A stretch of 64,000 bases of DNA from an uncultured Gammaproteobacteria bacterium (GTDB lineage: Bacteria > Pseudomonadota > Gammaproteobacteria > UBA9214). The stretch spans positions 35,758-99,757 of the forward strand of contig CALOCX010000002.1 in assembly GCA_942491995.1 (NCBI GenBank). Reading direction: 5' to 3'. The position numbers and the translations under genes are program-made. Below are positions 3,268-54,880 of the stretch, piece after piece (within the stretch, counting starts at the first letter, position 1; each line of letters starts with the position of its first letter). The notes under the pieces were generated by a model. It was not told the origin of the DNA. It searched no databases and saw nothing but the letters and a program-made list of their open reading frames with translations.

Positions 3268-3460
3268 ATTTGGGCATCCCCTGTTGTATTCGATAGCGGC
3301 TGAGATCTCCTTGAGCCTAATCACCAATACCGGGGACTAATCTGTTAGCAGTGTGCATGTCTGCCATGAGCGGAAAGCCTTAGTTAGCAGTGCCGTCCCC
3401 CTCTTGAACCTTCGGTTCAGGGGCAACAGTTGCAACGGTACGTACGGAGGATGCCCTCCT
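3268..3460 (+). ncRNA. ssrS: 6S RNA (SsrS)
   Basis: Lies between zapA and ygfA. The 3' region cttgaaccttcggttcaggggcaacag matches E. coli CUUGAACCAAGGGUUCAAGGGUUACAG. The closing stem is gggcatcc...ggatgccc, and the internal ctgagcc and aagccttag elements match 6S RNA. Confidence 0.75.
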
Positions 3461-3505
3461 TATTATTCCATCTGCAGAACTTCCAACCGTCAGCAGGGAC
3501 CGCTC

Positions 3506-4090
3506 ATGTCATCTCCTCGACTGCGCCAGAGCATCCGCCAGCAACGGCGGTCTCTCACCCGGGCCGAGGCAGATGACTGTGCCGAACAATTGGCGCACCG
3601 AACTGCAAGACATGCCCTGGTACTGCAAAGCCAGCGAATAGCTACCTACCTGGCAGCGGACGGTGAGATCGATCCCTACCCGCTGATGCAGTCACTCTGG
3701 GATTCGGGAAAGACCCTTTACCTCCCTGTGCTGGCACCGTTCTCGAACGGTAAACTGTGGTTTGCGGAATTCAACCCGAGGGATATCCTGGTGTTCAACC
3801 GCTTCGGTATACCGGAACCCGTGCGCCGCCGCCTGATCAAACCCAGCGCACTCGACCTGGTATTAACCCCGCTGGTTGCCTTCGACAGCAACGGCCACCG
3901 TATCGGTATGGGCGGTGGCTACTATGACCGCAGCTTTGCTTTCCTGCGCAGACGCCAGTACTGGCGCAAGCCACGCCTGCTCGGGCTTGCGTATGAGTTA
4001 CAGAAACAAACCTCCATTGAACCGAATGACTGGGACATCCCGCTGGATGCCGTTGCAACCGAGGCGCGCATATACCAGACACAGCGCTGA
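3506..4090 (+). CDS. ygfA: 5-formyltetrahydrofolate cyclo-ligase
   Basis: Downstream of ssrS as in E. coli and Pseudomonas. The conserved GMGGGYYDR motif is present. The true start is MSSPRLRQ at 3506, not the track start at 3353. Confidence 0.8.
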   Translation: MSSPRLRQSIRQQRRSLTRAEADDCAEQLAHRTARHALVLQSQRIATYLAADGEIDPYPLMQSLWDSGKTLYLPVLAPFSNGKLWFAEFNPRDILVFNRFGIPEPVRRRLIKPSALDLVLTPLVAFDSNGHRIGMGGGYYDRSFAFLRRRQYWRKPRLLGLAYELQKQTSIEPNDWDIPLDAVATEARIYQTQR

Positions 4091-4142: not shown

Positions 4143-4601
4143 ATGAATTACTGGCTGATGAAATCAGAACCGGATGTTTTTGGTATTGAAGACCTGATAA
4201 AGCGTCCCGATAAAACCGAGCCGTGGGATGGCGTACGTAACTACCAGGCAAGAAACATGATGCGTGATGACATGAAAAAAGGCGACCTGGCTTTCTTGTA
4301 CCATTCGAATTGCAAGGAACCGGGCATTGCAGGAATCATGAAAATTGTGCGTGAAGGTTATCCGGATCACACGGCATTCGATGCAAAAGAAAAATACTTT
4401 GATCCAAAAAGTGATCCGGACAATCCACGCTGGTACATGGTTGATGTGCGTCATGTGCGCACACTGAAACGCATCATCACGCTGACTGAATTAAAAACAC
4501 ACGATGAATTATCCGAGCTGCCACTGGTAAGACGTGGTAACCGATTGTCCGTGATGCCGATCAGCAAGACACACTGGGATTTCATTCTCTCACTCGAATA
4601 A
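4143..4601 (+). CDS. EVE (PUA-like) domain protein
   Basis: 152 aa. MNYWLMKSEPDVFGIEDL...WDGVRNYQARNMMRDDMKKGDLAFLYHSN is typical of the EVE/DUF55 family. Confidence 0.8.
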   Translation: MNYWLMKSEPDVFGIEDLIKRPDKTEPWDGVRNYQARNMMRDDMKKGDLAFLYHSNCKEPGIAGIMKIVREGYPDHTAFDAKEKYFDPKSDPDNPRWYMVDVRHVRTLKRIITLTELKTHDELSELPLVRRGNRLSVMPISKTHWDFILSLE

Positions 4602-5120
4602 CCATGTGCCAGCAAACGTGTTCCGGCAGACATCACGATTGCAATCGACCCTCAAGACTGTCGACTTACTTCACACTCTTGCTACAGGCCACTCTTACAA
4701 ACAAAACATAAGTTCATGTTTGTACTAATAAATGATTTGCGACTGCAATAGCAGGGGTTTGCGCTTTGCTAACGCCATACACGTTCAACATGTCAACTAT
4801 GCCGAACCGCAAGAGCGGTCAGGTAATCTCACATTGTTTGCACTGACGTTGCGACGAAACATTTCATGACGTGCATCGATTTTGTTTTAACGTTACTCAC
4901 ATCGAATGCATTACACATTACCTTCATCATTTGAAACATCATCAGTCGCCTCTCACACAATTGCGTGCAAGTTGTGTCGCACGTTTTTATTTAATTAAAA
5001 GTACGTGTAGCCGCTAACACAGTCGTTCAACCACGTAAACAATTCCACTAAAAAATACTGGTAATTTGTTACTGGTTGTTTATACTCACGTTGGGCTAAC
5101 ACTATGTGGAGGTTGTAAGT

Positions 5121-5507
5121 ATGGCTGCAAAAAAGAAAGTGAAGAGAAAGGTTGCTACCAAGAAGAAGGTAGCTACAAGAAAAGTTGCTGCTAAGAAGAG
5201 AGTAGTAAAGCGTAAGGTAGCTGCCAAGAAGAAGGCAGTGAAACGCAAAGTAGCTACAAAGAAGGTTGCTGCCAAGAAGAAGGCAGTGAAACGCAAAGTA
5301 GCTACAAAGAAGAAAGCAGTAAAACGCAAGGTAGCCACTAAGAAGGTTGCTGCCAAGAAGAAGGCAGTGAAGCGTAAAGTAGCTACAAAGAAGAAAGCAG
5401 TAAAGCGTAAGGTAGCCACAAAGAAGGTTGCTGCCAAGAAGAAGGCAGTGAAGCGTAAAGTAGCTACAAAGAAGAAAGCAGTAAAGCGTAAAGTAGCGCG
5501 ACGGTAG
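5121..5507 (+). CDS. histone H1-like, lysine-rich nucleoid protein (AlgP/Hc1-like [12 protein letters not shown] repeats)
   Basis: GGAGG lies 9 nt upstream of the ATG at 5121. The protein is almost entirely K/A/V/R/T repeats, and the DNA is built of 81-bp tandem units. Confidence 0.7.
5180..5500 (+). repeat. about 4 tandem copies of an 81-bp (27-codon) unit inside the H1-like gene
   Basis: gttgctgccaagaagaaggcagtgaa[a/g]cg[c/t]aaagtagctacaaagaagaaagcagtaaa[a/g]cg[c/t]aaggtagcc recurs at 5224, 5305 and 5386 with only synonymous changes. Confidence 0.8.
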
Positions 5508-5562
5508 AAGAGCCGCCAGCTACTGAATTATCCGGGTTGCATTAGCCTACCCGTGATAAGAA

Positions 5563-5592
5563 AAGCCCGGGCTGATTTGCCCGGGCTTTTTT
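5563..5592. terminator. bidirectional rho-independent terminator between the H1-like gene and ilvA
   Basis: agcccgggc-tgatttg-cccgggct, flanked by an A-run and a T-run. Confidence 0.75.
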
Positions 5593-12041: not shown

Positions 12042-13940
12042 TCAAGGTTCAGTTGAATATCCAAAGCTTTTAGCCCAGGGCTCAAGCAGTGGAACTATTC
12101 CTTTAATCTGATCCTGGTAATTCTTCCATCGTCCGATTGCTTGTGTATATAGACTCTGTGTCACCTGATTATAACTTGGAGTGGTTATCGTCTCCCTCGA
12201 CAATGCTGTCTGCTGAAAATCCAGTAAATGATCATGCCAGGCCAAACCCAGAAAGTTCAGTAGCGGTTCCGCGGCACCTTGCAAGTCATGGACAATATCT
12301 TCATACCTCAAAACTCCAGCATCAAGATCCAGGGCATTGTTGTAATGAACCCAAAGACTCATAACGGCATCATACAAGCTGGCAGATTGCTGCAGGGTCA
12401 GGAAATTCGCCATGGCATCGTTTAATTGAAAGTTCTGCATGAAACAACTCAGCACACAGTCGTACGGATGCCGTAATGCCAGAATGAATTTGGAAGCCGG
12501 GAAAACCCGGTGGATCAAACCAGCGTCAATGATATTCAGGGGCAGTTTGTCGATGACGAGCTTATGCGAACCATCAGGTTCAACATGAGAATTAAGCTCC
12601 TCGAAATATACTTCCCTTAACCCGGCTATCTGTTTGTCATCCAGGTCCGTCAGAAGATCAACTGTCGCGAGACCTCCCATGTGAGTCCGCATAGACTCCA
12701 CCATGTGTTTTTCTTCCACCACCAATACTTCGGGGTGTGACCGTAAAATTGTATCGAGGAGCGTGGTACCCGAGCGGGGGAACCCTACAAGAAATGCCAG
12801 TGAATATTGCCTGGTTGACGACTGTTTTGTGGACCATCTTATCTTCCCGGCATTCGCCCAGGATTCCGAGGTTTTTGATACTCGATCAAAGTAACGCTGC
12901 GCACTGAATTGCTGGCCAGCAGAAAATTGCCTGGCCATATTATTGGTTATCTCGAACTGAGAAAATGCGCTGGAAAACTCGCCAAGCCTGTCATATGTCT
13001 TTGAGAGAAGTTCCGAGTAACGCTGCCTTGTACGCGGCAAGAGTCTTTCGGGAGCTACCAGTTCAAGGAAATCACGAGCAGCTTCAAACTGCTTTTCCCT
13101 ACTGGCAAGCAGCGCCTTGAGAAACAGAAGTTCTGGATGGTTTTTTGGAAGTACCTGCTGTGCGCGATGCAAGGCCTTTTTCAGCTCGGTAACCCTGTTG
13201 TGCTTTTCGTAGAAATCACAAAGGCTGGTATGCGCGATTCCAAGATCAGGCTTGAGCTCGATCGCCTTCTCATAGCTCTCCACCGCCTCCTGCAACTTTC
13301 CAAGATCACAGAGTGCATTGCCGCGGTTGCTGTAAGCCTCGGCATAATCAGGCTTGAGCTCGATCGCCTTCTCATAGCTTTCCAGCGCACCCTCCAGTTG
13401 CCATAGCTCTCTAAGCACATTGCCACGGTTGCTGTAAGCCTCGGCATAATCAGGCTTGAGCTCGATCGCCTTCTCATGGCTCTCCACCGCCTCCTGCAGC
13501 CGCCCAAGGTCACAAAGTGCATTGCCACGGTTGCTGTAAGCCTCGGCATAACCAGGCTTGAACTGGATTGCCTTCTCACAGCTCTTCACCGCATCTTCCA
13601 GCCTCCCTAACTTGTGAAGTGCATTGCCACGGTTGCTGTAAGCATCCGCATAATCAGGTTTGAGCTGGATTGCCTTCTCATAGCTTTCCAGCGCCTGCTG
13701 CAGCTGCCCAAGGTCACAGAGTGCATTGCCACGGTTGCTGTAAGCATCCGCATAATCAGGCTTGAGCTCGATCGCCTTGTTGAATGCCTTGCACTGCCTC
13801 ATGAAACTTGCCTTGCTCCTGGCATGCCACTCCCAGGACATTGAGAATGAATACTGCTTGTGGATAGACCTGGAGTAATTCTCTACAAGCCTGCTCTGTC
13901 TTCGCCACCTGCCCGGAGTGATATAGATTGACCAGGGCAT
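12042..13940 (-). CDS. TPR-repeat protein with a C-terminal sulfotransferase domain (this is the downstream reading frame of a frameshifted gene)
   Basis: At least six 34-aa TPR units (AIELKPDYAEAYSNRGNAL...) are followed by GFPRSGTTLL, the PAPS 5'-PSB motif of sulfotransferases. Confidence 0.7.
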   Translation of the reverse strand: MPWSIYITPGRWRRQSRLVENYSRSIHKQYSFSMSWEWHARSKASFMRQCKAFNKAIELKPDYADAYSNRGNALCDLGQLQQALESYEKAIQLKPDYADAYSNRGNALHKLGRLEDAVKSCEKAIQFKPGYAEAYSNRGNALCDLGRLQEAVESHEKAIELKPDYAEAYSNRGNVLRELWQLEGALESYEKAIELKPDYAEAYSNRGNALCDLGKLQEAVESYEKAIELKPDLGIAHTSLCDFYEKHNRVTELKKALHRAQQVLPKNHPELLFLKALLASREKQFEAARDFLELVAPERLLPRTRQRYSELLSKTYDRLGEFSSAFSQFEITNNMARQFSAGQQFSAQRYFDRVSKTSESWANAGKIRWSTKQSSTRQYSLAFLVGFPRSGTTLLDTILRSHPEVLVVEEKHMVESMRTHMGGLATVDLLTDLDDKQIAGLREVYFEELNSHVEPDGSHKLVIDKLPLNIIDAGLIHRVFPASKFILALRHPYDCVLSCFMQNFQLNDAMANFLTLQQSASLYDAVMSLWVHYNNALDLDAGVLRYEDIVHDLQGAAEPLLNFLGLAWHDHLLDFQQTALSRETITTPSYNQVTQSLYTQAIGRWKNYQDQIKGIVPLLEPWAKSFGYSTEP

Positions 13941-27771: not shown

Positions 27772-30700
27772 TCAGTGCTCGCGGACAACACGAAATCCGA
27801 GGTTGTCGAGACGTGTATCCTGGTCATATTGGCTGCGCTTGGCATTGCGCAGTGAGTCTAGCGGACTGGTGTAGGCGCCGCCCCGTACGACCCGCATGGC
27901 GCATTCGGGAAACTGCCATGAGCTGCCATCTACCGGTGCACCATGGTAGCTGCCATGATAACAGTCAGACGTCCATTCCTGGACATTGCCGGTTACATCA
28001 TGCAGGCCGAAATCATTGGCTTCAAAGCTGCCCACAGGTGCCGTGCGCAGACTGTCCCACTCACTGCCACAGTCAAAGCAATTTGCATGAAGATTGTTAC
28101 TGTCATCATGCCACCAGAAACTGGCGACACTGCCGGCACGGGTGAAATACTCCCACTCGGCTTCTGATGGCAAACGGTATATCTGCCCTGTCTGCTCTGT
28201 AAGCCAGCGGGCATAGGCACGCGCATCATCCCAGGAAACATTGATCACCGGGCGCCCGCCACGGCCCCAGGACTCGTCATAAGGCAGCCGACGACCTGTC
28301 GCTCGCGCAAACCTGTCATATTCTTCGAATGTAACTTCATATTTACCGACAGAAAAGGCAGCCACATTCACCCGATGCCGCGGCCCCTCGTCAAAATTCA
28401 GAGAATTTCCAACACTACCCATTTCATAGCTGCCAGCCGGCAGCTCAACCATCACCGGACCCTGGCCACCAAGCTGGAGCTTTTCACGGTAGGAACGGCC
28501 GGCGACTACAGGCGCCAGGGACATCACGTCAACAGCCTCATCAGCCTGTGGTTGTAACTGTTCCTTATCAGGTACTGACGTCTGTACCGTGACATGTTCC
28601 ACAGCCGGCGGAGATTCCTGAACAGTTGCCGCAACTTGCTCGATTTCCATTTCCACAGACGCGGCGGCCGGTTGTACTTCAGTTGCAGGTGATTCACTGA
28701 TAACAATCGCTTCGGGTTCAGCCACCGGCTGCGTAACAACGGGTAATTGTCGCCCTGCGTCGTTGTCAAACAGCGGGACATCCACACCGAAAAACAGCCA
28801 GCCAGCCAGCGCACACGCAGTCACTGTACACAACCCGATTGCAGCACCAAGCCAGCGCCACTGCTTGTTTTCACGCCTGTCATCTACCGCGGAACGCTTC
28901 TGGCTGTCCTGCTCCCGGTCCACCGGGGTTACTGGCAATACTGCCTGCCGTGCTTTCGGTCCAGGCCCCGGGTGCCCGGATACTGCTTCAAGCTTGTCAA
29001 GGGACGGTACATGTAGCGGCTCGCTCGACACCTCCCCGGAATCCAGTTGCTGCCGGAGCGCGTCACGTTCCTGCTGCAGCTTGTCGCGAGCGGCTTCCGC
29101 CTCGGCTCTCAAGCGCAACGCAATCTCAACGTTCTTCTTGCTTTCATTCAGCTCATTGCGTAATTTTGCGGGGTCTTCGACCTGTTCGCCAACCCCCATA
29201 AGACCACGTGCGACCTCTACCTCACCACGCAAGGCATTCATCCTGTCGCGCAGTGACTGCTGCTCCTCAAGCGCTGCATCCCGTTCTTCTGTGTACTGCT
29301 TGAGCTGTGATTCGAGCTGTGAAATAGTTGCTACCGCCTGCCGGTTTTGTTCTTCCATCAAGTCGACATCGACCTTCCTGCGGTCTTTTTCCTGACGGGC
29401 GAGCACGGCAATTTCTTCGTGTGCCTTTTTCAGTTCCTGCTGAAGCCTGTCAATCTGGTCTTCAGTTTCTACATGCTCTGCAAGCAGTTCCCGGACGCGT
29501 TCCTGCTCCTCCTGTCTTGCTGCATTGCGGGCCTGCTCAATAGCACCATTATGATTGGACAGATTTGTTTCATGCTCTGTCGCGATTGAAGCAAGCTGCT
29601 CCTTCAACTCGCGCTGGCGTGCGGCCATCTCAGACCGCTCTTCCGCACGTGCCTGCCGTTCAGCATGCAGTTGTTCCCGCAAATTATCGACATCTTCACG
29701 CGCACCTTCGCGGTCCTTCTGATGGTCCGTCGTCTGTTGCTCGACTTTTTTTCGCAGCCTGTCTATTTGCCCCTGCAGCTCTTTTTCATTGTCGTTTTTG
29801 CGTGTCAGGTCCTCATGCGCTTTCTGCACAGACAACTTGTTCTCTTCCTCGAGCGCCTTCGCCCGTTCTTCCTGCTGTTCGAGCTGCAGACGCAGGTCGC
29901 TCAGCTGCTGTTGTAATATGTCACGTTCCTGCTGAAATGCTTCAGACTCACTCCCGTGCAGTGCCAGCTGTTCCTGCAGAGAACTCAGATGCGCATCCTT
30001 TTCCTCATTTGACTGTTCAACAGCACTTGTCTTTTCCCTGGCCTCCTGCAACTGCGACTGTAACTGCTGGAGTTGCTCATTCGAAGCAGATGCCAGTGAC
30101 TCCGCCTCCTGTTTCAGTGACTCTATCCCGCTTTGCAGTTGCTGTTTCTGCGCCTCACTATCAGCGTGTTGTTGCTGTAGCTGTTCACGCTCCGCCATCA
30201 CGGCCTGCAACTCATCATCCTGTCTGGACCGATCCTGCTTGAGTTCAAGCTGCTTGATCTCAAGTTGCTCAATCCTTTCATTTGATTTGTCGAGCTGTGC
30301 TTTAAGTTCTGCCTCAAGTGCAGACTTGTCTTCGCTGGATTGCAGCAACGCCAGTGACAACTCCTCGCGGAGCGTGGTCACAACCTGCTGCTCGCCATCC
30401 AGCACCTGCTGCAACGCAGCCCGCTCGGCCTCCCATTCCGACTGCTGCCGCTGGGCGGCCTCTTCCGAGGCCTGCCTGTCTGCCAGCAGGTTTTCCAGCT
30501 GCTCCCTTTGCTCTTCCTGTTGCACACCGGCATCACGCAATTCGGTGCGTAATATCTCGTTATCCCGCTGCAGCGCCTGCAGCTGGCCCGAGAGTGCAGA
30601 GTTGTCTGCCTCCAGTCCGGACACCTGCCCCGATTTCTCATTGAGTTGCGCCGAAACCTCGGCAAACTCATGCTTGAGATGGTCAAGTTCCTCTCTTAAA

Positions 30701-32100
30701 GTGTCGGATAAAGTCGTTTGCTGCTGCAAACGCTCGTCAAATTCCTTTTCTGCGAGCTGCTCCTGCAACCGTCCAAGTTGCTGTTCATAGTCACTGGCGC
30801 GCCCGGAGAATTCTTCCTGGAGTGCCTGATACCGTTCCTGCAGCAGTGCTTCAGCTGCAGCTGCCTGCTGGTTCACCATAACGTCTACCGCAGATTCTGA
30901 TCCAACGGGGGCATCCTGAGCGTCGCCCGCAGGGCTGCCGTCAGCATCTGATTGCCCGGCAAACCCGGAACTCCCACCGTCAAAATCGACAACCTCTGCA
31001 AGTACCTCGATGGAATCTGCCGCATCTTCCCCGTCCACAGGCTCGTTGGCACTGCCTGACAGGCCGGGGATGCCTCCCTCCAGCACATACACATCAAAGC
31101 CCTTGTGACTTAACAGGAAAGCGGCTGATTCGCTGCGCCGTCCGGTGTCACAACAAATGATGTATTTCGAGTTGAAAACCAGTTCTGACAGTTCATCCCG
31201 CAAGCGGAATAAAGGAATGTTGACACTGTCTTCGAAGGCACCGTTCTCATATTCATCCGCCGTCCTGACATCCACCCAGACGGCACCATCATCCACCATG
31301 GCTGCGGCCTGTTCGTAATCCACCCGCTTGACCAACTGATTTTTCAGTAACTCCACAAAGTCCTTCTTCGCCAGCCGCATCAATAAGCCGTCAGTCAACA
31401 TTGATACTGTGGCATTACGCCTGGTGTTGGACACCAGGGCATCCTCACCAAAGGAATCGCCTTCGCCCAGTTCAGCCAGCAATTGTGGCTCATCACCGGG
31501 GGATTCCTGCCTGGTTACCACACAACGGCCTTCATGAAGGGTGTAGAAATAATCGCCGTTATCCCCCTGGCGTATAACCGTGTCACCTGCCTTAACCGGT
31601 AGCGATTCCATCTTGATCAACAGGCTCTGGATCATCGAGGGCGGTATCTTTATAAACACTTCAGACTGAAGGACGCGCGTCATCCAGTCTTTATTCGTTT
31701 CTGCACCGATTTCTACCACTTCCGCCGTACTGGATTGATCCCATGTCAGAAAGACATCGAGCAGGCTGGAGTCGATCTTCGCGATCACGACCTTTTTAAC
31801 GGCTCTCGCTGACAGTGATCGGGGTTGCTGGTTGGCAATCGGATAGCGGCTTATATCCGTACCAGCCTCGACTTCACTGGTCACCTTCCTGAAACCGTCA
31901 ATCAGGTTAACCTTGCCTTCCAGCAGATAGATTGACTGGTTATCCCTGTCTCCCTTGCGGAACAGGTAGTGCCCTGCCAGCACTTCCTCGATGATGATTT
32001 TCTCCGACACTTCCCTGAAGCGTTCCGCAGATAGCGCATTCAGCGGCACCAACTCTTGCAGAAGCTTGCTATCCACCGTTAATTTCTTCGCTGCGCGCAT
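27772..32100 (-). CDS. giant multidomain membrane signalling protein: 2x cNMP-binding, rhodanese, ~600-aa coiled coil, one TM helix, and a C-terminal FGE-sulfatase (SUMF1-like) domain
   Basis: N-terminal CAP-type effector domains (GEGDSFGEDALV...RRNATV). Rhodanese loop YIICCDTGRRS. A Q/E/L/R-rich heptad region from about aa 440 to 1040. TM helix WRWLGAAIGLCTVTACALAGWLFFGV. C-terminal LPSEAEWEYFTRAG...RVVRGGAYTS is the FGE/SUMF1 hallmark. AGGTGA SD before the ATG at 32100. Confidence 0.85.
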   Translation of the reverse strand: MRAAKKLTVDSKLLQELVPLNALSAERFREVSEKIIIEEVLAGHYLFRKGDRDNQSIYLLEGKVNLIDGFRKVTSEVEAGTDISRYPIANQQPRSLSARAVKKVVIAKIDSSLLDVFLTWDQSSTAEVVEIGAETNKDWMTRVLQSEVFIKIPPSMIQSLLIKMESLPVKAGDTVIRQGDNGDYFYTLHEGRCVVTRQESPGDEPQLLAELGEGDSFGEDALVSNTRRNATVSMLTDGLLMRLAKKDFVELLKNQLVKRVDYEQAAAMVDDGAVWVDVRTADEYENGAFEDSVNIPLFRLRDELSELVFNSKYIICCDTGRRSESAAFLLSHKGFDVYVLEGGIPGLSGSANEPVDGEDAADSIEVLAEVVDFDGGSSGFAGQSDADGSPAGDAQDAPVGSESAVDVMVNQQAAAAEALLQERYQALQEEFSGRASDYEQQLGRLQEQLAEKEFDERLQQQTTLSDTLREELDHLKHEFAEVSAQLNEKSGQVSGLEADNSALSGQLQALQRDNEILRTELRDAGVQQEEQREQLENLLADRQASEEAAQRQQSEWEAERAALQQVLDGEQQVVTTLREELSLALLQSSEDKSALEAELKAQLDKSNERIEQLEIKQLELKQDRSRQDDELQAVMAEREQLQQQHADSEAQKQQLQSGIESLKQEAESLASASNEQLQQLQSQLQEAREKTSAVEQSNEEKDAHLSSLQEQLALHGSESEAFQQERDILQQQLSDLRLQLEQQEERAKALEEENKLSVQKAHEDLTRKNDNEKELQGQIDRLRKKVEQQTTDHQKDREGAREDVDNLREQLHAERQARAEERSEMAARQRELKEQLASIATEHETNLSNHNGAIEQARNAARQEEQERVRELLAEHVETEDQIDRLQQELKKAHEEIAVLARQEKDRRKVDVDLMEEQNRQAVATISQLESQLKQYTEERDAALEEQQSLRDRMNALRGEVEVARGLMGVGEQVEDPAKLRNELNESKKNVEIALRLRAEAEAARDKLQQERDALRQQLDSGEVSSEPLHVPSLDKLEAVSGHPGPGPKARQAVLPVTPVDREQDSQKRSAVDDRRENKQWRWLGAAIGLCTVTACALAGWLFFGVDVPLFDNDAGRQLPVVTQPVAEPEAIVISESPATEVQPAAASVEMEIEQVAATVQESPPAVEHVTVQTSVPDKEQLQPQADEAVDVMSLAPVVAGRSYREKLQLGGQGPVMVELPAGSYEMGSVGNSLNFDEGPRHRVNVAAFSVGKYEVTFEEYDRFARATGRRLPYDESWGRGGRPVINVSWDDARAYARWLTEQTGQIYRLPSEAEWEYFTRAGSVASFWWHDDSNNLHANCFDCGSEWDSLRTAPVGSFEANDFGLHDVTGNVQEWTSDCYHGSYHGAPVDGSSWQFPECAMRVVRGGAYTSPLDSLRNAKRSQYDQDTRLDNLGFRVVREH

Positions 32101-32745
32101 ATTCACCTGGTTCAGAATTCAGTGATCGTCGTTATTTACCCCGTTCACGGGGCCCCGCCACGGCACTACACCGCACCTTGTTTATCGGCAAAAACAGCTT
32201 GAAATTAAGGAGATGAACTGTGCGGCAAGAGACGCGTAACAGGATGCAGGACACGACAGGATCAACGCCTCGCAGCACATTGGCGGTGATCAGTCTGCAA
32301 CCGCTAGCAGGCTATCGGCCACCAAGGTGAATTGCTGCACAGCGTTATACATCGCGCAAAATTAACTATATTTATGTTTAATATCAGTTGGTTGGACTAT
32401 ATCTCGGATATCAATGTCTAGTAAAAAGCAGGACCCGGTTAACATGTGGCAACGCTGTAGAAGTATCTGGCCACCTGCCACCAGGACTGCCGGCAACATC
32501 ACTGGCGGTCATCGTGACACGCTATAACCATTCACCCTGCATACTCTGACAACAATGTGGTTGCCGGGTCGTCAACAGACACATGACAGAACACACCGAA
32601 TAAACATCCATGCCGCCGTCTGCCGTATGGCGCTGAAGTACTGCTATAGAAGGTGTTTTATTAAATTAAAACCCTTTAACATTTCTATTATTGTGCTATC
32701 TTACGCGTGCTATTAATTTCACCACCTGAAGAGGAGCGACAACGA

Positions 32746-33120: not shown

Positions 33121-33150
33121 AAACGGGGCTGTTCGCGGCCCCGTTTTTTC
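33121..33150 (+). terminator. rho-independent terminator after the HU-like gene
   Basis: acggggc-tgttcgc-ggccccgt followed by TTTTTTCTC. Confidence 0.75.
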
Positions 33151-53058: not shown

Positions 53059-54807
53059 TCACGACCCGGCCCCGTCCGGCGGGGTGTTGGCAATCAGGTA
53101 CATGGGCCGGTCCGGCGGCATGCCTTCCGCGAAGAAAAAAGGCACCTCAGCGGGGTTATTGAACAAGCGCTCGAAGTATTTCGGTTCGATCAGGATGTAG
53201 GACAGCGTGTCCGTCTCCTGCATTATTCGCATCAGTTCGGCCTCGTTCACCTCCGGCACCCGTCGGTCCAGGTAGAAGCCGTATTCTTCGTCCCAGGAAC
53301 GATACATATAGACAGGCCGCTCCCCGACCAGGCTGGCGATGGCAGCGATATAGGGACGGGTATCCTCCCTGACACTGTTGATGGACTGCATCATGAACAG
53401 CATAAAGGCCAGCAAGATCCCCTGGAACACGATGTACAGGCGGATCAGCGGCGGCCGCTCGCGGAGGGTCCAGCCGTACCCCCACAGTCCGCCCAGCAGC
53501 AAGATGCCCCCAAGGATGTAATGCCGCCATTGTCCCAGGGTAGCCAGATAGGGTCTGGCCTCCTCCAGCCGTTCCGGACCCAGCGAGTCCTTCAGCCAGG
53601 TCCCGGGCCACTCTGAAGAGAGAATCTGCGGGATGAGTGCAAGCAGCAGTAGCAGGACCAGCGCCGTTCCGCTGGTCACCAGGAACACCCGGCGCAACGA
53701 TCGGGGGCGGATCGTCAGGCTAAGGTAGCCGGCCACGAGCCAGGCAGCGGCCGGATAGAGCGGCAGGATGTAATCGCTGCGCTTGATCCCGGAGAGCGAG
53801 AAGAACAGCAGTATCCAGAGAATATAGACCACCAGCAGACCCTCGACCCCGGCGCGTCTGGACCGGTCGCGCAGCACCTGGTAGATGATCACCGGTATGA
53901 ACAGTGCCCAGGGGAAGAAGCCCCACAGAAAGTGCATCGGATATTGCCAGCCGGGCTGCCGCTGGAAGGTCGTGAACTCAAGCGCGCTGAACAGATTGCC
54001 AAAGCGCGACAGGTTTTCCTCAAGGATGAACCAGCGGAAAAAGTGACCCTCGGTGATGACGGACGCGTAAACGAACCAGGGCAGTGCAAGCGCCAGAAAC
54101 AGCAGCATGCCCCTGCCGAGGAACACCCTGGACAGTTCCCGGAAGGCACCCTGCAGCAGCAGGAACAGAAACACCGGGACGCCGGTAACAATGAAGCCCA
54201 CCGGTCCCTTGGTCATCACCGCCAGGGCGGCCGCAATGAAAAACAGGTAATAGCCGTGATTCCGTCCCCCGACCTCCCGCTCGGGCGACACCCAGTAGCC
54301 GGCGAATGACACGATCGCGGCAAAGGCGAGCAGGCACAGCATCAGGTCCATGCGCGCCATTTGCGCCATCCCGATCACCTTGGGACTGGTGACCAGAATG
54401 GCGGCGGCCAGCAACAGCGGGGTCCGTTGACCACGCTCCTGTGGCAGCAGCCGGAACATCAGCATGAGCAATACCACGCTAACCAGTGAGGGCAATCGGG
54501 CGGCCAGTTCCCAATGCGCCCCGGTCACGGATCTGGCCAGTCCAATGGTCCAGAAATAGAGAGGCGGTTTGTCGTAGTCCTCCGCCCCGTTCATGTGGTT
54601 GACGCCCCAGTCACCAAGCAACAGGAACTGCCGGGCGATCTCCGCGGACTCCGCCTCCAGGGTGCCGTTCAGTGCCCGGACTGAAGCCTGCCAGACGACC
54701 ACCCCGAGCAACAGCAGGATGATCGCCAGGGGAATGATGGCCGGAAGTCCTGAACGGTCGTCAGACGAGGCGCTTGCATCGCCTGAAAAGTGCGGCTGGC
54801 TTGTCAT
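53059..54807 (-). CDS. family 39 glycosyltransferase (ArnT/PMT-like)
   Basis: 582 aa, polytopic. YDKPPLYFW is the GT39/ArnT signature loop. Confidence 0.8.
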   Translation of the reverse strand: MTSQPHFSGDASASSDDRSGLPAIIPLAIILLLLGVVVWQASVRALNGTLEAESAEIARQFLLLGDWGVNHMNGAEDYDKPPLYFWTIGLARSVTGAHWELAARLPSLVSVVLLMLMFRLLPQERGQRTPLLLAAAILVTSPKVIGMAQMARMDLMLCLLAFAAIVSFAGYWVSPEREVGGRNHGYYLFFIAAALAVMTKGPVGFIVTGVPVFLFLLLQGAFRELSRVFLGRGMLLFLALALPWFVYASVITEGHFFRWFILEENLSRFGNLFSALEFTTFQRQPGWQYPMHFLWGFFPWALFIPVIIYQVLRDRSRRAGVEGLLVVYILWILLFFSLSGIKRSDYILPLYPAAAWLVAGYLSLTIRPRSLRRVFLVTSGTALVLLLLLALIPQILSSEWPGTWLKDSLGPERLEEARPYLATLGQWRHYILGGILLLGGLWGYGWTLRERPPLIRLYIVFQGILLAFMLFMMQSINSVREDTRPYIAAIASLVGERPVYMYRSWDEEYGFYLDRRVPEVNEAELMRIMQETDTLSYILIEPKYFERLFNNPAEVPFFFAEGMPPDRPMYLIANTPPDGAGS

Positions 54808-54843
54808 GGAAGTGAGCTATTTGAAAGGTGTGCGCTTGCAGTG

Positions 54844-54880
54844 CCTGCTGCATGCTGCATGCTGCATGCTGCATGCTGCG
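54844..54880. repeat. heptanucleotide microsatellite (gctgcat) x ~5, upstream of the GT39 gene
   Basis: cctgctgcatgctgcatgctgcatgctgcatgctgcg, located 40-70 bp upstream of the GT39 ATG. Confidence 0.8.

Follow-up and report, generated by a model that had tools for sequence, protein, structure and literature searches.

The window analysed here, a 64,000-nucleotide stretch of DNA from an uncultured gammaproteobacterium, carries a short gene for a lysine-rich protein made almost entirely of tandem repeats. The product is extremely basic, stands alone and has no detectable globular domain, and by analogy with known H1-like proteins it probably acts in the manner of the C-terminal tail of histone H1 or of chlamydial Hc2, binding DNA and compacting the nucleoid. 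The gene is real, is under protein-level constraint and is not part of a larger coding region. It belongs to a family whose conserved properties are the position, the start, the promoter, the reading frame and the charge density, and no particular sequence or geometry. The features of this locus and of a second gene for a basic DNA-binding protein are listed in Table 1.

Table 1. Features of the lysine-rich gene locus and of the HU-family gene, in positions of the window.
Feature	Position	Strand	Basis and details
AT-rich spacer from the EVE-domain gene to the promoter; mostly unconserved	4602..5049	+	GC content; cross-species alignment
Putative promoter core	5050..5096	+	A-tract 5050-5055; CTGGTAATTTGT 5058-5069; TTGTTTATACTCA with -10-like TATACT 5081-5086; weak -35
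Shine-Dalgarno GGAGG, 8 nt before the ATG	5108..5112	+	Read from the sequence; conserved in the alignment
Lysine-rich repeat protein CDS, 128 aa	5121..5507	+	ORF; synonymous variation in units 2-4; syntenic orthologues in about 20 species
81-bp (27-codon) tandem array	5169..5497	+	Units 5169-5249 (diverged), 5250-5330, 5331-5411, 5412-5492
Intrinsic terminator hairpin	5559..5592	.	-26.3 kcal/mol, z -6.1; 0/200 shuffles as stable; flanked by A-run and T-run
HU-family DNA-binding protein, 119 aa	32746..33105	+	PF00216; Lys-rich tail residues 1-22, HU fold 23-119
HU-gene terminator	33121..33146	+	-18.7 kcal/mol, z -4.0

The 128-aa product contains only six residue types (K54 A28 V24 R13 T8 M1), with 52% lysine plus arginine and a pI of about 12. 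It consists of 16 residues followed by four 27-residue units and a terminal VARR. Tandem Repeats Finder identified the underlying array with a period of 81 bp, 4.1 copies, 90% matches and a score of 490, and bears out the initial annotation of this ORF as a near-pure repeat product encoded by about four 81-bp units. The program also reported sub-periods of 33 and 48 bp, which appear because each 81-bp unit is the sum of a 16-aa and an 11-aa module, both terminated by KRK. Units 2-4 (5250-5492) are identical at the protein level, and all seven of their variable sites are synonymous changes at third codon positions. Only 23.5% of single-base changes per unit are synonymous, so the chance probability of seven synonymous sites out of seven is about 4e-5. 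Unit 1 is older than units 2-4, and it differs from the other units by 16-18 nt and by four amino acids. The earlier statement that the units differ only synonymously is thus correct for units 2-4 and does not extend to unit 1.

Single-sequence AlphaFold modelling predicted one long helix for the 128-aa protein (pLDDT 92.9, pTM 0.34). Charged clusters recur in the window protein with a period of 5.4 residues, and its helical moment at 100 degrees is 0.04. An amphipathic helix or coiled coil was considered and ruled out by this moment and by the presence of proline every 7-8 residues in several orthologues. Orthologues that contain proline cannot share the predicted long helix, and the model is therefore taken only as a sign that the protein has no globular fold. 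Charge periods of 4.1 to 6.9 residues occur among the orthologues; as both this period and the presence of proline vary, no specific binding geometry is conserved.

Relatives of the gene were obtained by synteny with the neighbouring EVE-domain gene (4143..4601; Pfam EVE, 208 bits) and by a DNA pattern derived from the conserved promoter. The EVE-domain protein was used to fetch 80 species loci, and a Lys-rich repeat ORF was found in the same position and on the same strand in about 20 of them (19-20). These ORFs encode proteins of 45-156 aa and follow the EVE gene at a distance of about 190-820 bp. The proteins always start with MA[ATVI][KR][KR]K and usually end with R or K. Among the carriers are MAGs labelled Ectothiorhodospiraceae, Chromatiales or Gammaproteobacteria, and also the cultured Thiohalophilus thiocyanatoxydans DSM 16326, whose orthologue (L087, 7261-7623) is accompanied by a TATACT -10 element, a GGAGG sequence and a terminator. 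The repeated DNA units are lineage-specific, with lengths of 21, 24, 30, 36, 39, 42, 51, 54, 60, 63, 81 or 84 bp and 2.3-14.3 copies, and in the 21 orthologues all repeat periods are multiples of three. The unit peptides also differ by lineage (e.g. RKKAAPK, KKKVAKKKA and KRKTKRKV).

Searches by sequence did not recover these relatives. A word-indexed search of 5.8 billion proteins returned zero matches to the 128-aa protein at E <= 1e-3, a PDB sequence search found nothing, and, by exact look-up, neither the window protein nor any of nine orthologues is present in the protein collection. The full HMMER scan of 1.84 billion representatives yielded 15 matches, all of them longer unrelated proteins with Lys-rich tails, comprising adenylate kinase, Hsp20, L17 and Hc2-like giants. 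Such a failure of homology searches is expected because the sequence is of low complexity. In the best Lys-rich matches (P0139, P0141, P0146 and P0147), the similar region is a C-terminal tail on adenylate kinase, Hsp20 or ribosomal protein L17; elsewhere, widely differing proteins carry this same polycationic module.

The promoter-derived DNA pattern retrieved 18 metagenome contigs, to which the loci L001, L014 and L015 were added for the allele set. In the clade sharing the promoter, complete alleles encode 70, 91, 99, 102, 111, 117, 123, 124, 128, 130, 132 and 155 aa; several of these length variants come from metagenome assemblies, probably short-read ones, in which near-identical 81-bp units may be collapsed, so that the five-unit allele and the length differences between species are robust and the exact counts for single contigs are less so. 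The most direct comparison is between L104 (128 aa) and L095 (155 aa), whose flanks are 99.6% identical over 750 bp. In the coding sequence they differ by nothing but one additional, exact 81-bp unit. In the flanks, both share 97.6-98.4% identity with the window. In another pair, L096 (124 aa) and L101 (102 aa), the upstream DNA is 100% identical over 500 bp and the genes differ by 66 bp; the 22 residues concerned correspond to two 11-aa modules, with an additional K/R change at the junction. The allele of L001 (flanks 99.6% identical) keeps the four units of the window and has a single substitution, A34P. Overall, the alleles are mosaics of 9-, 11-, 16- and 17-residue modules, all of which end in KRK. 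The initial annotation had proposed that such arrays change length, and had named a strain comparison of copy number as the check. Both pairs of metagenome-assembled alleles support the proposal, and copy number is not invariant among close relatives, whose products range from 70 to 155 aa.

The whole spacer between the EVE gene and the lysine-rich gene (4602-5120, 519 bp) has a GC content of 42%, compared with 55.4% for the window, which places it in the lowest 0.6% of windows. In an alignment across species only the final ~85 nt 5' of the ATG can be aligned. Eight species with EVE proteins of 76-88% identity share about 65 invariant columns, nearly all of them in these last ~85 nt. The conserved blocks follow each other in the order A-tract, CTGGTAATTTGT, TTGTTTATACTCA with TATACT, TTGGGC, the Shine-Dalgarno sequence and ATGGC. 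The exact 12-mer CTGGTAATTTGT has a single occurrence in the window and precedes the true start codon by 63 nt in the window, L001, L014 and L015, and with one mismatch in L020. In the L016 group, the motif is found 45-46 nt from an upstream ATG (MQWRF...), which is equivalent to 63-64 nt from the true start.

A consensus promoter scan found no canonical sigma-70 site at the lysine-rich gene. From the conserved blocks we infer a sigma-70-family promoter with a weak -35 element, an UP-like A-tract and a leader of ~30 nt. Transcription is predicted to start ~7 nt past the -10 element TATACT. This element, together with the weak -35, could possibly be of the sigma-S type; a sigma-54 reading of CTGGTAATTTGT was dismissed by inspection, on the basis of spacing. 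The promoter core is far better conserved than the coding sequence or the remaining spacer, and it occupies the same position in L014-L025, L082 and L084. Its conservation suggests that a dedicated regulator exists or that expression is under very strong selection. The spacer also contains an inverted repeat, TACAAACA-N13-TGTTTGTA, at 4696-4724, ~95 nt past the stop codon of the EVE gene and partly conserved in L014 and L015, which could serve as a weak terminator or as a site of protein binding.

The hairpin downstream of the lysine-rich gene is located between this gene and the convergent ilvA gene on the minus strand, and is therefore probably a bidirectional terminator. It was missed by a pattern scan, probably because the stem includes part of the T-run, and was confirmed by folding. 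A permissive Rfam search of the lysine-rich locus gave only sub-threshold matches, which fell on this hairpin. According to the initial annotation, both this gene and the HU-family gene have strong hairpin terminators and long AT-rich upstream regions. Folding confirms the terminators of both genes. The AT-rich upstream region is pronounced for the 519-bp spacer and weaker for the HU gene, the upstream region of which has 47.9% GC over 639 bp, about the 5th percentile of windows.

We also asked whether the 128-aa protein can be assigned to a described family. The Pfam model PF07382 (HC2) matches it with 19.9 bits (E 8.6e-4) against a gathering threshold of 40, and the NCBIfam equivalog model NF038053 (hist_H1_lk_Burk) with 24.1 bits (E 3.5e-5) against a cut-off of 80; both weak matches span nearly the full length of the protein. 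Among ten orthologues, none matches PF07382 at E <= 0.1, and nine have no match to NF038053 at the same level, L014 scoring 16.7 bits. There is no Pfam linker-histone (H1/H5) match at E <= 0.1, and the whole protein is repeat. AlgP is recognised by a helical N-terminal domain of ~124 aa followed by KPAA repeats; here the repeats begin at residue 2 and the window allele has no KPAA. The phasin-H1 fusion PhaF is not a match either, as no phasin was found with Pfam or NCBIfam and the protein has no non-repeat region. More generally, neither database detected a globular domain. The initial annotation had called the product AlgP/Hc1/BpH1-like; membership of the Hc2, BpH1 or AlgP families is not supported, with both curated models far below their cut-offs and no AlgP or PhaF N-terminal domain present. 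The notion of a stand-alone protein resembling an H1 tail fits its six-residue composition and in-frame tandem DNA repeats. In the H1-like lysine-rich repeat class, which is defined by function and not by homology, proteins have more than 40% Lys+Arg, spaced by Ala, Val or Pro along almost their full length, and in-frame tandem repeats of variable number, and the 128-aa protein has 52% and an 81-bp unit in 4.1 copies that varies among metagenome-assembled alleles. As the Hc2 and Burkholderiales models score so far below their cut-offs, the analogy rests on composition and architecture.

The same locus settles the question, raised earlier, of whether the ORF is a mis-split piece of a larger AlgP-type or PHA-granule protein. 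The ORF is preceded by an in-frame stop codon (TAA, 5097-5099) 24 nt before its ATG, which excludes that the product is the C-terminal end of a longer AlgP- or PhaF-type polypeptide. A conserved promoter and a Shine-Dalgarno sequence also precede the gene directly, and the start MA[ATV]KKK is common to about 40 alleles and orthologues.

In the mechanism that we propose, the gene would be transcribed alone from its strongly conserved promoter, translated from a strong Shine-Dalgarno sequence and ended by a strong terminator. The Lys/Arg clusters, spaced every ~5.4 residues, would attach to the phosphate backbone of DNA regardless of its sequence, and the resulting neutralisation of charge would bring about compaction or bridging of the nucleoid. 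Whole modules of the in-frame array would be added or removed by unequal recombination or by slippage during replication, so that populations would carry length variants of differing total charge, and each lineage would homogenise its own repeat unit.

DNA is the presumed partner of this polycation by analogy with Hc2 and BpH1. It is not the sole candidate ligand, because like repeats target polyP granules (AlgP) or specific mRNAs (PhaF). In the main rival reading, the same polycation could chiefly serve as a coat or spacer of polyP granules, like AlgP, or as an RNA or ribosome binder that tunes translation in the way of the KPAA tail of PhaF, and we consider this rather unlikely. AlgP is found at polyP granules through its Lys-rich repeat domain (PMC9239181), and the C-terminal domain of PhaF binds specific transcripts and activates translation (PMC12818456). 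In the library of 1.84 billion proteins, the best matches are Lys-rich tails carried by ribosomal protein L17, adenylate kinase and Hsp20, an indication that such tails serve several cellular contexts. However, AlgP and PhaF own a second, structured domain as a second attachment, and the window protein has none; no polyphosphate, PHA or ribosome gene was seen among eight large ORFs scanned in the 64-kb window; and the precedents that are fully stand-alone, Hc2 and BpH1, are DNA binders. A more far-reaching version, which seems to us quite unlikely, is that the syntenic family is not a nucleoid protein and represents a free polycationic 'tail without a body', a scaffold of polyphosphate- or RNA-rich condensates in sulfur-oxidiser-type Gammaproteobacteria, in which the repeat number would set the size or spacing of condensates and a dedicated regulator of growth phase or starvation would act on the invariant promoter core.

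The preferred reading of a DNA-binding, H1-tail-like protein was also weighed against two further explanations. True homology by common descent with Hc2 of Chlamydia or BpH1 of Burkholderiales could account for the weak matches to PF07382 and NF038053 over nearly the whole length, and for the similar architecture and repeat-number variation. Against it, the scores are 19.9 versus 40 bits and 24.1 versus 80 bits, nine of the ten orthologues match neither model at E <= 0.1, and the tenth, L014, reaches just 16.7 bits with NF038053. At such a composition, similarity by descent is indistinguishable from convergence, and neither synteny nor a non-repetitive segment common with the Burkholderiales or Chlamydia genes was seen; we regard common descent as very unlikely. 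It is extremely improbable that the ORF does not encode a functional protein and is a by-product of a purine-rich DNA satellite with a role at the DNA or RNA level, or with none. Low complexity would fit a satellite, as would the 72.6% purine content of the coding strand, an antisense ORF of 111 aa that is also open, and the lack of significant homologues in sequence searches. Yet a satellite would not explain why the periods of all 21 orthologues are multiples of three and the variable sites of units 2-4 all synonymous, why the ATG, the Shine-Dalgarno sequence, the promoter and the terminator are conserved, or why the frame and the Lys-rich product were kept though the DNA unit was replaced many times.

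The second basic protein of the window is encoded 27 kb away. Its match to Pfam PF00216 (Bac_DNA_binding) reaches 54.4 bits over residues 23-119, with a cut-off of 22.4, and places it in the HU/IHF family; together with a basic tail of ~22 residues (MAVKKKATTKKKTAAKAAMKPT) this agrees with its initial description as an HU-fold protein with a Lys-rich N-terminal tail. No DNA repeats underlie the tail, which is conserved in nine of nine relatives aligned, including the cultured Thiohalobacter. At E <= 1e-5 the protein has 6153 homologues, which carry the names 'HU family DNA-binding protein' or 'nucleoid DNA-binding protein'. In PDB, the protein matches pA104R and HU proteins, and its closest solved structure is pA104R of African swine fever virus (ASFV; E 8e-10), nearer than any bacterial HU in PDB. 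It thus resembles ASFV pA104R in having the HU fold and, so far as the available description of that protein goes, Deinococcus HU, which is also said to have a Lys-rich basic N-terminal extension. The gene encodes an ordinary HU-family protein, and its 27-kb proximity to the lysine-rich gene has no special meaning. The co-occurrence of two Lys-rich tails in one window, presented earlier as notable, loses its weight given the size of the HU family and the conservation of the tail in all nine relatives. In a related MAG, the HU relative P0041 and the lysine-rich gene L014 are probably located on one contig (CAVOZZ010000004.1, 244,833 bp).

Several other features were observed in the window. A 6S RNA (Rfam RF00013, 83 bits) is located at 3275-3454 on the plus strand, between zapA and the gene for 5-formyltetrahydrofolate cyclo-ligase. 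Its position implies that the 245-aa GTG ORF at 3353..4090 is over-extended at the 5' end; the corresponding gene is called as 194 aa in L001. The second in-frame repeat array of the window belongs to a TPR and sulfotransferase protein (12042-13940, minus strand) and consists of 102-bp (34-codon) DNA repeats at 13245-13778, with 5.2 copies and 82% identity, which encode the TPR part of the protein. Directly upstream of the HU gene and divergent from it is the gene of a 1444-aa multidomain protein (27772-32106, minus strand) that combines cNMP-binding domains and a rhodanese domain with a very long coiled-coil-like stretch rich in Gln/Glu and, at the C terminus, an FGE-sulfatase domain. At 54842-54879, the heptanucleotide GCATGCA (minus strand) is repeated in 5.4 copies (96%), 35-70 nt before the start codon of the gene for a PMT-like glycosyltransferase (53059..54807, minus strand), and this repeat could be a candidate slipped-strand expression switch.

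With the lysine-rich gene, the small group of bacterial H1-like proteins gains a clear example from the environment. The gene represents a family that is defined by its position after an EVE-domain gene, and not by its sequence; this family occurs in many uncultured Gammaproteobacteria and in a few cultured ones, and is captured by no Pfam or NCBIfam model. The gain or loss of whole units is directly visible between natural alleles. This kind of protein and its repeat-number variation are already known in Chlamydia, Bordetella, Burkholderia and Pseudomonas, and the family leaves the current understanding of H1-like repeat proteins unchanged. With Thiohalophilus thiocyanatoxydans DSM 16326 as a cultured carrier, the tuning of DNA, polyP or RNA binding by tail length is open to experiment, a question common to AlgP, PhaF, Hc2 and BpH1.

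Among known systems, the C-terminal domain of eukaryotic linker histone H1 is similar in composition, with Lys, Ala and some Thr and Val, in being predicted to have no globular fold and presumably in condensing DNA through charge neutralisation. In contrast to linker histone H1, the window protein has no winged-helix globular domain, and there is no sign of common descent. Hc2 acts as a condensing protein at a late stage in an obligate intracellular parasite, whereas the window gene belongs to a gammaproteobacterial chromosome of free-living type, where it follows an EVE-domain gene. Hc2 (HctB) of Chlamydia trachomatis is, like the window protein, a stand-alone protein formed nearly entirely by Lys/Ala/Arg-rich repeats with basic clusters every ~5 residues. 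Its size variants, from 165 to 237 aa, arise by duplication or deletion of whole 36-aa repeat elements arranged in a mosaic (PMC2848022). The window protein shares with Hc2 the mosaic structure, here of KRK-ended modules, and the change of one whole unit between alleles, and differs in the length of the unit, 27 aa (16+11) versus 36 aa.

BpH1, the Bordetella counterpart of Hc2, and the Burkholderia H1-like proteins bind DNA as Hc2 does, and all of them have size variants that result from repeat number, with 182 to 206 aa in BpH1 and 14 size variants in Burkholderia (PMC2848022). BpH1 and the Burkholderiales H1-like proteins (NF038053) are also small, stand-alone, Lys/Ala-rich and variable in size from strain to strain; unlike the window protein they are found in Betaproteobacteria, and no common gene neighbourhood was seen. 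AlgP and PhaF of Pseudomonas aeruginosa resemble the window protein in their Lys-rich tandem repeats, H1-tail composition, clonal repeat variation and polyanion binding (DNA, polyP, RNA); for AlgP, repeat peptides bind DNA and the algP repeats vary clonally (PMC9239181). AAPKRK-type units of the orthologues L016, L018, L020, L022 and L025 are near KPAA, while the window allele has no proline, unlike the KPAA repeats of AlgP and PhaF. Moreover, the repeats are preceded by a helical N-terminal domain of 124 aa in AlgP (352 aa) and by a phasin domain in PhaF, whereas the window protein is repetitive from its start and contains no other domain. Judged by analogy, the resemblance of the window protein to Hc2, BpH1 and the AlgP tail is one in kind, through composition and architecture.
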